A stretch of DNA of 64,000 bases from Saccostrea echinata. Its lineage: Eukaryota. Made by a program: the position numbers and the translations under genes. Shown piece by piece: positions 171 through 6,100 of this stretch. The stretch is from NCBI RefSeq assembly GCF_033153115.1, contig NW_026889759.1, forward strand, positions 10,602,001 through 10,666,000. The letters are read 5' to 3'. A model generated the notes under the pieces. It did no database searches. It worked only from the letters and a program-made list of their open reading frames with translations, and had not been told where the DNA came from. Positions within the stretch are counted from its first letter, which is position 1; every line of letters starts with the position of its first letter.

Positions 171-3100
171 TGAAAAAGCGCACTGGAACACCAGCTACCA
201 GAAAAAGTAAGAAAGCTCAATCTGCCACTGCTAAACGCCTGTCAGCCCAGCGCGCTGCCGAGAAAAAGGCAAAGGCTGCAAAAGAAGAGGAGGAAAAAGG
301 GACCACTGAGAAAGAGGAACAAGAGGAGGAAAGTCAGAATGATGATGAAAGTCCTGAGAAGGTGGTGAAGGATCCACCAAAACAGGAATCACCCAAAAAG
401 AAAATTATCACCAAGACAAAAGCCAAGGAGTCAGGCAAGACCAAATGTGAGTCACGTAACTTTTTCCTTCATTTACTTCAAAGATTAGCATATCATGTAT
501 GCAGCTCTATTAAGGCTGCCCAAAGTTTGAATGCATTTTAAACAAACCATTACTTGCAAACCCTATCGTACACAAGTAAAGTCAATTTAGTAGAGCATTC
601 TTTCAACTATTTAAGAACATGTTTGTTCTGATCATGTGACAGACAATTATAATTTTACCAATTGTTATACATAAATTCGCTTCAGCACAGGTTATTAAAA
701 TGATTTTTGTTACCAATTTATTGCTACAAATAAATGAAAATATAATTTTACAATGATTTTGCAGTGAAGTCTCCAAAAGTCAACAAATCCCCCAAAAAGA
801 AAATATCTACAGAAAATATCTCGCAAGATGAAGGTAAATTATGGGTTGTTTTTTTTTTATTTTTTAAAGATTTATCCGTAATGGTCCACATATTAAATTG
901 TGCACCTGCATGTTCATTAATTAACATAATTAAATTTTAATATGATATCTGTGTTGCAGAGAATGAGTCAACTGAAGGTGAGAAGACTCAGGAGGAGGGA
1001 GAAACAGAGACCCGCCCCATTCCAGAACCAATGGATGCTCAGGATTATGACACTCGCAGTGAAGCAGGCTCCAGTGATGGAAGTCTGAACAATGAGGAGT
1101 CTGGAGAATCAGGTTTATATTTCATTTTTGAATACAATTTCACTGTCAAGAAATCACTCCCAAGAAAGCAAGATGTGATTATTATTATTGGTTAGATCAT
1201 GGTTTAGTACGACATAAGTGATGAAAAATGATCAGGATAGTTAGGGGTCAAATGTTGTTTATTACAGATTTAGACTTAGAGGGAGAGGATTCGGTGCCAG
1301 AAAAAAAGAAACGCAAGACCAGAGACATATCTCCTATAGAATGGGATAGAAAGAGTGAAGGGAAAAGTGAAGGAGAGGAAGGAGAAGAAGAAGACGGTAA
1401 AAGTGATGATAACAAAAGTGAAAAATCCGAAGACTCTACTGCCAGGAGTGAGTGAACAAGATTTTGTCAGTGTCAAATTATATTGAATTTCAGATCAATA
1501 ATTATTCTAGCATTTTGTAATTTGAAAAAAAAAAATTTCCTTCATAACAGAAATAAGTTCAAGGATGAAGTACATCTATCGTGGAGCAAGATACTTCGTG
1601 ATTAAAAGTAACAACCATGAAAATGTGGCTCTGGCCAAAGCCAAAGGTGTTTGGTCCACACCTCCTCAGAATGAAATCCGATTAAACAATGCCTACAAGG
1701 TCAGTTACCATTGTATATATGTCATGTAATTAGTTACTATTGTATACACATACATGTATCTTGTAATATGAGTTATGGTTAGTTGATACCATTCCATGTT
1801 TGTGTATAAGTGAAAACATTTTTTTTTTCAGAGCTGTGATAATGTGATACTGATATTTTCTGTCAGAGAAAGTGGAAAGTTTCAAGGTAACATGTCATAT
1901 AAAGTGAACTATTAATTAAACTTAAGTACATGTATTTGCAACACTGTTTGAAATGTGACAATTACATGTTGGTGTACCCTGCTAGGTTTTGCCAGAATAG
2001 CTGACGAGTCCACCAAAGACCATCCTCCAATTCGATGGGTGCTGCCTCCTGGTTTGAGTGCAAGAGCTTTAAGTGGCGTTTTTAAACTTGACTGGATCAA
2101 CAGGTAAACCATAACAAAAAATTGAAAATTATCTCCAATTGAATAAAGGGCACTGATTTACAGAATACATGTTTATCTAGATTTAAAAGAAAACAATGTA
2201 ACAATTTTTACTCCTGGTTATCAGGAAGGAGCTTGCCTTTACAAAGACACAACATCTCCATAATGCATGGAATGACAACAAGCCAGTAAAAATTGGAAGA
2301 GATGGGCAGGTAAATTTGATATTTTATGACACACTTCTGTATAAGATGGTCTGTATAATTTGCCATATTTTACAGACGATTGGTCATTGCTGTTACTTGG
2401 TTAATGACTCGTCAAAACAAGAAGTCTTTTAAAAAATCCTTAAGCTGGGCAATTCGAAGTTCAAAATGGAGCAAGTTTCATGTTTATTACTCAGAACTAA
2501 TCAAGTTTCCTTTACAAGTCAAAAGACAGGAAAATCAATGTTATTACGTATTTGATTGTATATGGAAACTAACTATTGAAAATAACTAGGACTAATCGAG
2601 TACCAGTGACTTTGAGAAAAAAGTTTGGTATTAAGTATGATAACTAAAAAGGAAATTTAGATTATTTTAAATATTGCATACTTGCCTTGAATTGTAGGAA
2701 GTGGAACCAAGATGTGGAGAGGCTCTGTGTAAAATGTTTCCGCCCGATGAAAATGTGGATCTTTCATCCATTGCAAGAAAAGCTCGTAAATCATCCCGCA
2801 GTGGAGGAGGACCCCAAGCAATAACGGAGAGAAGAAATCGCGGGGGTTATCGGGGGCGTCCTGAATTCATTAGGTTAGAGACGTTTGGAAAATTGTGTAG
2901 TAAAACTAGTAGGACATTTTAATAGGTACCTAAGATTTAAAAAAAAAAAATTAAAAACTTGCGTTCGGTAAGTATGCAGAGGACAAATGACAGTTGATTT
3001 ATTTTGTTTGAAGATTTTTCAGGTTTAGAGGCCCAGTTTAAAAATCTGGAACAAAATGTGGACTATTTTGTAGCATGGCTATGTGCCTCAATAGCCAACT

Positions 3101-6100
3101 CTTAGTGGCTCTTAGCATGCTAAATGTGACTGCCACTTTAAAAAGTTCTAAAGGACTAACTCCCCATTTTGTGACCCCTCTCTATATCTGGACTAATCCA
3201 CCACAATACTAGCTACATGTATCTCAATGGACTCACCACTTTAGTTCTGTATGGACCAGAGAAATCGGCCATTGTGTTTAAATAAGAAAAAAAAATGTGA
3301 ATGAACATTCTTCTTTGGACTAAATATTTATTGCAGCCATGTGTTCTAAAATTTATGTGTGATATGAACTTTTTCTTTGGACTAAAAATATAATGCAGCC
3401 AGTTGTTGCTTAATATTGTGTGAATGAACTATTCCTATATGGACAATGTTGTAAACGATGTGTTAATGACTGCAGTGATAAGTATGTGAAGATGCTGGCC
3501 GAGCAATGTACGGTATGTTATCTAATCCATTTACTTACATCAAGTCCACCCAACTAAAGAAACCGAATCCAACATAAAAAAAATATCAGTTTGAGTTTTA
3601 TTCCAAAAATACTAATCTGAGTTTAGTAAATATTGTAGCGTGGATAATTTTTCTTAATTGAAGAGTTATGTGACAAATATATGAAAAACATAATGGATTT
3701 GTACATATATAGAAGATGTACTTTTGTAGCAGATTAATTTTTTAAATACATAATTTTAGTATTAAGTAAATGTGTGTCCTTGCTTTTAACAAACATTTCA
3801 GCAGAGCAAAAATTATAGAAGCTAACAGTAGATGCTATGTTTATATTAATTACATTGATTTTCAAATGTACAAAAGTTTCCCAAATAAACACAGTTTGTT
3901 ACATAGCACACTGCAGGGAACAGATATGAATGGTAAATCTTTATTTAAAAAAAAGTTGCATTAAAATGTCATACTTAGCATTTATTTCAATTTACTGATG
4001 GAAAAACAACAGTCTAGACTTTAGCTTTAATATATATTTTTCTAAAGTTGCATAGATATCATAAAATGTAAATCTGTATTCATTCATGTTTTTAATCTCT
4101 TTCTGAAACACAGAATTTTTGCAAAACATTCTTAATATAATCTGACAAGGAATTCACTTATATTCAAGTTTACAAGAAAGGTAAAGTTAAAAACTGTATA
4201 GAATTTAAGGGTTTCTGTGCATTATGAATGACCATGTTCAGATACAAATTCTGATTGGCAGTCGTGTGGGATGAAAGACGTTGGACTTGATGTAAGCAAC
4301 CATTGTAAATTCTTGTACAGCAAAATGTACCTTGTCTTATTGTGATCAAGCACTGAAACAAATATGGTTGTTGTAATGTTGAATATAGGCATAGACCATA
4401 CAGCAGGGAGGACTTCTATGAACAAGATAGAAGAAAGAGAAGTCGTGATGAGATGCAACATGGAAGAGGTAAACTTATTTTGTAAATATAGTTTAAGGCC
4501 AACAATAAAAAAAAATGATTTGTTTGATGTATTCCGACCAACCTTGAAATTCACCTCTACCCCCATCATTTTTTTTCAGTACTTTTATTTTTTCTTTCCA
4601 AAGAAAAACAAATTACATGTATCCACATCATTTTTAAGATTAAGGTTCATATTTCTCAAAGATGCTTTTTAGATTAAAAAGTTTTGACTCATATACATGT
4701 ACATTATTACAGTAATGAAAACATCAATAAATTTTAAGTCTTTGATTTTAATGACAATTATCAGTGTGTCAAAAATTCCAAACACAAAAAAATATAACAA
4801 TACCTACTTACCCACCATAAAAATGTTGAAGTACATCAAACAAAACCTTTTTTAATGATGGCCTTACACAAATAGAAAATTATTCAAACAACACTTTAAA
4901 TATGAGCTCTAGAGTTTCCATCAGATTTAACAAAACCATTTCCTACCCATGATGAAAAATAAAACAGATGTAAAAGGAAACAGGTTTCCATTCTTTTGTT
5001 TTGTAATGTAGTTTAACAATTGATAATTTTAGGTTTCTACAAAGAGAGAAGAATGGACAGGTAAGTTTTGTTTTGGTTTGGTTTTTGGGTTTTTTGTTTT
5101 TTTTTTGGCATTTAAAGAAATTTTCAATGTCAAGAGTCAATTCCATTAAAATGACATGCATTGTAGAGTCCTATAGGATCTTAAGGAGGCTGGGGGGTCA
5201 ATAAATTAACCATCAGATATAACTTAATTTTTTTAGATATGATATCTTAAGCAGTCAACTATCATTTGGCAAACAAAAATTTCATACATTTTAGTTTTAA
5301 AATTTGATCATTTTTGTATATCTTTATATGGAGCTCTTCTTCTATAGGAGATCAATATAGTCTGAAAATGGCCACAACCACCCAGCCCTCTTAATCTACT
5401 TGTACATTTTTGAAATTTTAACTTGTTTTAAACTTGTTTTAAATTTTTCTTCAGATCACCAAGATATGGAGTGAGGAGAGAAACATTTATCAATGGGGTA
5501 AGTATCTTACATTTTTATTGAGTAAAAGTTTATCATTGTCTAACTGTCTTTTACTTAAAATTTTTTATTCATGAATTTTAGTCATACAGTGATTACATCA
5601 GGGAATTCACTCACAGTCGAGCACCCCCACCCCCCATGCCACCATATGGACCACCGGTAAGTGATATGTATATATATCTGTAGATAAGTTTATTTATTAG
5701 TACAGTGTATTAAGCGTACAGTTTGTATTAAGTAACTACCTTACTCTGCATAATAGACGAAAAAGATTTTTAACAGTTTTATTTAGTAATGGATATTAAA
5801 CTTGTTCTAATTACAGCCACCAGGATTTGCCATGGACCCCATGAACCCTTACAGTGGTCACTATGACCAGAGACCAAGAGAATACATGATGGCATCCCAG
5901 GAATACAACATGGCCTCAATCTCCAGATCCAGAGCAGACAAAAGATCTGTAAGTTAACTAATTCCATGTGTATTTATTGCTAATATTTCAAGGCTGTAAT
6001 GACCATTTATTGCTCATCCATTTGGATGTACTTTGTCTGAAGATAGAATTGCTTTTAAAAGACTATTATTAATTTGTTGTTTATTGTAGTATGAGAGGGA

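Follow-up and report, generated by a model that had tools for sequence, protein, structure and literature searches.

The oyster Saccostrea echinata probably possesses the counterpart of the switch at intron 11 of mouse Ythdc1: in its YTHDC1 gene the intron behind the exon that closes the YTH domain is selectively retained, and a likely methylated cluster of GGAC words at the start of this intron likely slows the TAG|GTTAG donor. The intron lies at the orthologous position, is retained in RNA, brings in a stop after the YTH domain, has a GGAC excess on one strand, begins with a conserved donor and contains a distal G|GTATGT. The link to methylation in the oyster is drawn by analogy with mouse. 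The gene lies in a window of 64 kb, the whole stretch of DNA that was analysed; its spliced translation from 1551 onward matches P0001, labelled Saccostrea echinata YTHDC1, and the region is single-copy, no second copy being found in the genome.

Assembled RNA contigs of four runs (22 listed) were placed on 1500-5060 only: X1, X2 and X3, which are of the same species (two samples, RNA type presumed), and X11, a close relative (confirmed RNA). A metagenome scan supplied 48 YTHDC1 loci (L numbers), 12 of which include the end of exon 11 and an apparent intron. The features of the region are as follows.

2698..2873, + strand: exon closing the YTH domain, equivalent to mouse exon 11; translation matches P0001, junction 2309^2698 in four of four runs
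2871..2886, + strand: productive donor TAG|GTTAGAGACGTTT, T at +3, deeply conserved; 2873^4389 in three of four runs, TAG|GTTAG in 8 of 12 animal loci, vertebrate read-through R|LETF, R|LEMF, R|LEIF
2874..4388, + strand: selectively retained 1515-nt intron, by boundary match the orthologue of mouse Ythdc1 intron 11; unbroken contig in X1, X2 and X3
2912..3444, + strand: ten GGAC(A/C/T) words on the sense strand, predicted m6A sites; 10 versus 0.9 expected, 0 antisense
2920..2922, + strand: first in-frame stop (TAA) whether the intron is retained or either distal donor is used; lineage-specific, absent from Magallana and Crassostrea-like read-through ORFs
2968..2973, + strand: internal consensus donor GTAAGT, possible decoy; no junction in four runs, V-S-M in oyster ORFs fits conservation, GGTAAGT in the intron of L003, L023 and L036
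3015..3022, + strand: internal acceptor-like TTTTTCAG; no junction in four runs, F-S-G retained in read-through ORFs of other oysters
3039..3041, + strand: TAA reached only via 2873^3023; computed frame, junction absent from RNA contigs
3296..3430, + strand: 62-nt tandem duplication with GGACT at 3317 and 3379; a third, diverged copy with GGACA at 3441
3510..3519, + strand: distal donor ACG|GTATGTT directly 3' of the GGAC cluster; G|GTATGT in six of eight full orthologous introns versus 0.65 expected, ACGGTATGTT in oyster, L011, L037 and L038, junction absent from contigs
4138..4388, + strand: conserved 3' intron block and acceptor GTTGAATATAG; aligns in relative X11, L023 ends GTTGAAATATAG, read-in ORF P0036 in 16 contigs
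4389..4468, + strand: next exon, equivalent to mouse exon 12; spliced translation and RNA contigs

The splice sites and stops lie where the earlier note had placed them: TAG|GTTAGA at 2874, TCG|GTAAGT from 2968 (a 94-nt extension), ACG|GTATGT from 3513, TTTTTCAG ending at 3022, and TAA at 2920-2922 and 3039-3041. By a plain count of U1 matches the productive donor scores 6 of 9, no weaker than several other YTHDC1 donors; what distinguishes it is conservation, not weakness. Retention, or use of the donor at 2968, adds a tail of 16 residues before TAA 2920-2922, and the YTH domain is already complete upstream of the exon 11 boundary; the truncation just past the YTH domain that had been expected of retention is thus borne out. 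This stop stands 590 nt ahead of a junction at 3512 and 45 nt ahead of one at 2967, with further junctions behind. Inclusion of 3023-3512 as a cassette would bring in TAA 3039-3041, 471 nt before 3512 and hence more than 50 nt before a junction. On its + strand the entire window has a single GGTATGT, the one at 3513; a lone GGTAAGT appears in an intron of such size in 8% of shuffles, so it is not rare.

Long-range pairing was also surveyed. Among 19 inverted pairs in this AT-rich region the best joins 3531-3548, starting 18 nt past the 3513 donor, with 4282-4299 (18 nt, 94% complementary); the second arm, within the conserved 3' block, holds the sole downstream GGACT of the intron (4283). Judged from complementarity, such pairing could loop out the poorly conserved middle of the intron. 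Words resembling polyadenylation signals occur at 3884 (AATAAA), 2950 and 3960 (both ATTAAA), and no contig end indicative of intronic polyadenylation was found at any of the three. An intronic small RNA as the reason for conservation was rejected, since comparison with Rfam gave no match to a known snoRNA or miRNA in the oyster locus and one sub-threshold match (E 0.93) across five loci.

The principal visible output of the locus is retention of the whole intron. In three of three same-species runs a single unbroken contig from about 2845 to about 4415 spans it entirely, with upstream introns removed, and 2873^4389 is the sole GT-AG junction across the 1515 nt in the contigs of X1, X2 and X3; this junction is not listed for the relative X11. 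Each of the four runs shows splicing of four upstream introns, with a depth of zero over 2333-2689, which indicates that the X1-X3 material is RNA. Contig depths in the three same-species runs (23.8, 20 and 44.6 for the intron versus 66, 16.8 and 161 plus 73 for the junction) are no gauge of the level of retention. Two short contigs of X3 cross the intron-exon border at 4360-4415 with depths of 44.8 and 98.6, together exceeding the intron contig (44.6); they may reflect 3' bias or an unassembled form with the end of the intron only.

The junctions by which the earlier note proposed to check its outputs divide accordingly: 2873^4389 is present in three of four runs, but 2967^4389, 2873^3023 and 3512^4389 number zero among the assembled contigs of all four, and in these runs neither 2967 nor 3512 is the start of any contig joint, and 3023 is the end of none. 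Because assembled contigs, as opposed to raw reads, lose rare and NMD-degraded RNAs, the alternative junctions are missing only among assembled forms.

The GGAC cluster stands out at several scales. The segment 2874-3512 holds ten GGAC(A/C/T) words where 2000 dinucleotide shuffles average 0.9 (maximum 6), has none on the minus strand, and is the GGAC-richest 640-nt stretch of the 64 kb; the 13 other YTHDC1 introns in the window (2784 nt in total, some boundaries off by 1 nt) hold one GGAC. Two to three of the words belong to the 62-nt tandem duplication. Six of the seven GGACT copies of the intron fall within 3023-3512, as had been claimed. Generic DRACH is barely enriched (21 versus 15.9, P=0.044; whole intron, P=0.25) and was set aside as a weak signal; GGAC carries the signal. 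One GGACT occurs in the preceding intron, at 2589, where RNA depth is zero. By analogy with mouse, the cluster is likely methylated in the oyster.

Judged by sequence, the intron at 2874-4388 is the orthologue of mouse Ythdc1 intron 11. It follows the exon that ends the YTH domain and is in phase 2, as in mouse, a gene of 17 exons according to the accessible text of Kasowitz 2018 (PMC5991768). Translated, the mouse intron 11 primers of Koertel et al. read PSRREP and PEFHQRP, one on either side of DVGR|RRP, and mouse DVGR|RRP aligns with oyster EFIR|HRP. Of 13 short vertebrate-type proteins, ten read through as R|LETF, R|LEMF or R|LEIF, two are spliced and one is garbled; the read-through starts at DVGR| and its forms include one named frog protein and one named fish protein. 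The oyster read-through is R|LETF, matching vertebrate R|LETF. Divergent vertebrate-like YTHDC1 proteins (P0219, P0294) read through as R|LAN at the same boundary.

The sections of Wei et al. 2021 that are accessible (PMC8327914) report heavy m6A on mouse Ythdc1 exon 11 and intron 11 and a fall in use of a minor donor from 20% to 0.07% upon METTL3 loss; their published coordinates place that donor 1358 nt into the 2433-nt intron. Knockout of Mettl3 lowers retention of intron 11 in mouse, as given in the available part of Koertel et al. (10.1101/2020.12.20.423675). A minor donor at +1358 agrees with an exon that begins as usual and ends at the 3513 donor, and with neither 2968 nor a 3023-3512 cassette. 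By this analogy 3513 would be the best oyster analogue of the mouse minor 5' splice site. The poison cassette exon proposed earlier finds no backing here, neither inclusion junction appearing in the contigs of four runs, from which rare forms are lost, and the location of the mouse minor donor not fitting it.

The productive donor recurs in distant animals. TAG|GTTAG is found in 8 of the 12 loci (L003, L011, L020, L023, L030, L036, L037 and L038) and is absent from four, L016 having TAG|GTCAG and L015, L017 and L041 having other donors; at introns 9 and 10 of these loci the donors vary at +3 to +5. Placement by a tree, from which P0085 and P0287 were omitted, unites L030 with Sanderia and Hydractinia, both named cnidarians (99/98), groups L003 and L023 weakly with Capitella (86/79), and leaves L011, L020 and L037 unplaced, on a long branch within the spiralians; the loci do not represent independent lineages (L011 goes with L038, L023 with L036). 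L011 is a transcript that retains this intron only. The genomic loci L020, L026-L035, L037 and L038 do not have the intron present in the oyster at 1887-1985.

Eight full introns, namely that of the oyster and those of seven loci, were available for counting; the acceptors of the seven were set by eye, six of them being supported by a frame that stays open after splicing and that of L036 by an in-frame Arg-rich peptide. Sense GGAC totals 72 versus 26.9 expected (maximum 40 in 1000 shuffles) and antisense 17 versus 24.9; the excess is not significant individually in two of the eight (L011 and L020), and the remainder of the L011 locus is equally GGAC-rich. G|GTATGT is present in six of eight versus 0.65 expected (maximum 4 in shuffles), missing in L020 and L030, and the longer form ACG|GTATGTT is common to oyster, L011, L037 and L038. 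Of 60 GGAC words, 58 lie upstream of the distal donor, a position significant on its own only in the oyster. The proposed donor at 3513 thus has counterparts in distant animals, but 3512^4389 is absent from the contigs of four runs. Internal GGTAAGT is found in three of the eight full introns and also in the partial L003. L011:1269-2516 and L038:2182-3436 share long near-identical intron blocks around the distal donor, extending beyond the motifs studied.

Read-through ORFs behind spliced upstream exons were found in gastropod-like Logan sequences (P0110, P0115) and in sequences grouping with cnidarians (P0241, P0249); R|L read-through, with inferred boundaries, is also annotated in sea star, horseshoe crab, limpet and dog whelk. 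A cricket isoform (P0211) reads R|Y, P0095 reads R|F and P0096 reads R|C, and the R|L pattern also fails in two truncated proteins, P0087 and P0139. L015 and L017 show no GGAC excess, and L015, L017 and L041 do not have TAG|GTTAG; from these sequences, lineage-specific loss of the switch is possible in L015, L017, L041 and P0211.

The close relative X11 differs from 2967-3609 by 26 substitutions in 643 nt plus 26 gap letters, much as in exons (30 in 584 nt); 4138-4392 also aligns and most of 3610-4137 does not. Predicted proteins of Magallana and Crassostrea-like oysters continue from exon 11 into the intron (...VSMWRT...FEDFSG...VDYFVAW), with upstream exons fully spliced ahead of the read-through in P0002 (Magallana), P0011 (14 contigs), P0016-P0019 and UniRef P0009; short oyster read-through ORFs might derive from DNA. 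P0036 (16 contigs) runs from the 3' end of the intron into spliced downstream exons. The ORFs of other oysters pass uninterrupted through the counterparts of 2968 (V-S-M) and 3022 (F-S-G), the nucleotides being deduced from residues, and both words seem to be kept yet unused. The predicted conservation of the GTAAGT at 2968 in other oysters holds in that V-S-M fits it, but the ORFs run through the site and only three of eight full introns have GGTAAGT.

Two further candidates were discarded. TAA 2920 is not a conserved element, no stop being present at its position in Magallana or Crassostrea-like read-through ORFs. A coding role of the extension was rejected, as the tails differ and the frames shift: their length is 16 residues here, about 70 in Magallana and about 16 in mammal-type ORFs, and their sequences differ too. 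The annotated oyster isoforms P0045, P0046, P0049 and P0004 differ at later exons (insertions after ETFING and DKRS, one exon skipped), which points to further C-terminal alternative splicing in oyster YTHDC1.

It would be possible for 2967^4389, 2873^3023 and the 3023-3512 poison cassette to be the real outputs, removed unseen by NMD. Every one of these forms gives a premature stop, V-S-M and F-S-G are kept across other oysters, internal GGTAAGT occurs also in L003, L023 and L036, and NMD targets are depleted and rare forms lost from contigs. None of the junctions occurs in four runs, however, the ORFs of other oysters continue through both sites, GGTAAGT is found in just three of eight full introns, and the mouse event consists of a far-distal donor and retention with no cassette; we regard this explanation as unlikely. 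The outputs 2967^4389 and 2873^3023 put forward earlier are accordingly not upheld, and the donor at 2968 and the acceptor at 3022 are more likely to be decoys or rarely used sites than real outputs. If decoys, they might bind U1 and U2AF and block excision independently of m6A, with another regulator in control and GGAC serving export or decay of the retained RNA. The oyster intron, longer than 1 kb, retained, and with internal sites that are conserved and form no visible junction, resembles the decoy cases described in the accessible text of PMC6097662, but the mouse counterpart intron responds quickly to METTL3 loss in the parts of the mouse reports available, and the excess of GGAC is confined to one strand and is found again in other lineages. 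As a replacement for the m6A model this is doubtful; the decoy and m6A models can both hold.

That retention serves to make a functional short YTHDC1, with the YTH domain kept and the C-terminal tail lost, appears very improbable. The domain is complete before the boundary and such isoforms are annotated in several species (P0009, P0206, P0213), but tail length and sequence vary (16 residues here, about 70 in Magallana, about 16 in the mammal type) and the stop, far upstream of later junctions, favours decay. Least credible is an absence of any regulation, the pattern then arising from slow splicing or DNA contamination together with chance splice-like words. RNA type is presumed for three of four runs and AT-rich introns carry splice-like words by chance; against this, splicing has removed the upstream introns in every one of the four runs, where depth over 2333-2689 is zero, and the conservation and motif statistics lie above all shuffles. 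This explanation is already largely refuted.

The switch is likely to be real. The regulated switch of the earlier note survives in that m6A-linked unproductive splicing is very likely, given the retained contig, the GGAC excess and the mouse orthology; of the outputs it named, retention is seen, and those through 2968 and 3022 are unsupported. By extension from mouse, METTL3 would methylate the GGAC cluster and the methylated cluster would hold back the TAG|GTTAG donor. High m6A would then reduce the output of YTHDC1, itself an m6A reader, and low m6A would permit productive splicing to full-length YTHDC1. The main predicted output is a retained-intron RNA that would undergo nuclear detention or decay, decay being expected because the stop lies upstream of further junctions; a minor, unstable form from 3513 would carry the whole cluster as an exon extension.

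An origin of the switch before the split of cnidarians and bilaterians is, on balance, favoured. Much more speculative, and in our estimation improbable, is the combined proposal that the switch predates this split and reads METTL3 marks on GGAC together with the METTL16-type mark on U6 snRNA. The productive donor has A at +4 (AG|GUUAG) and the distal donor U (G|GUAUGU), a contrast that suggests added sensitivity to U6 methylation. The accessible text of Parker 2022 (PMC9803359) reports that in plants the pairing of A+4 and U+4 donors shifts when U6 loses m6A, and that an AG exon end, as at the productive donor, dampens this sensitivity.

The mechanism is already known in mouse; such depth of conservation was not found in print. 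In the literature on YTHDC1 autoregulation, intron 11 and oysters or invertebrates, as covered by openly accessible text with most subscription papers outside it, conservation outside mammals was not found stated, and the available parts of the oyster or bilaterian m6A papers PMC10787124 and PMC13629450 do not discuss the intron. Self-limiting splicing of the nuclear m6A reader has so far been documented in mouse cells. If the intron, the donor word, the GGAC cluster and retention are common to molluscs, annelid-like and other spiralians and a sequence that groups with cnidarians, m6A homeostasis by way of this intron would be a circuit ancestral to animals. Invertebrate laboratories would gain a one-PCR readout of nuclear m6A activity, and the disputed effect of intronic m6A on donor choice would gain a natural set of variants.

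Mouse Ythdc1 intron 11 (PMC8327914; 10.1101/2020.12.20.423675) is the closest known system. It shares with the oyster the gene, the position and phase of the intron and the first codons R|LETF, as well as m6A target words that follow the productive donor, retention of the intron in RNA, and a donor or candidate donor deep inside it (+1358 of 2433 nt in mouse; the oyster candidate at +640 of 1515). Methylation and METTL3 dependence are demonstrated in mouse only, the distal junction amounts to about 20% in mouse chromatin RNA whereas it is absent from oyster contigs, and close to its 5' end the oyster intron carries an additional GTAAGT/TTTCAG pair. The correspondence between the mouse minor donor and oyster 3513 is putative and rests on position; the word G|GTATGT was counted in the eight full introns of the oyster and the metagenome loci. 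Decoy-exon retention at SF3B1 intron 4, in the accessible text of Parra et al. 2018 (PMC6097662), likewise concerns a retained intron of more than 1 kb (1515 nt in the oyster) whose internal splice sites are conserved and give few or no visible junctions in normal cells. Unlike SF3B1, the oyster has the GGAC cluster as its hallmark and no junction into the internal sites, and a decoy role is putative; of the two sites of the would-be cryptic exon, 3022 is backed only by F-S-G in oyster ORFs and 3513 is recurrent across introns. The poison exons of SR-type splicing factors, a comparison made in the available sections of Wei 2021 (PMC8327914), are similar in that an RNA-processing gene contains conserved non-coding sequence giving rise to unproductive RNA, whereas the visible output of oyster YTHDC1 is retention of the whole intron rather than a cassette exon.
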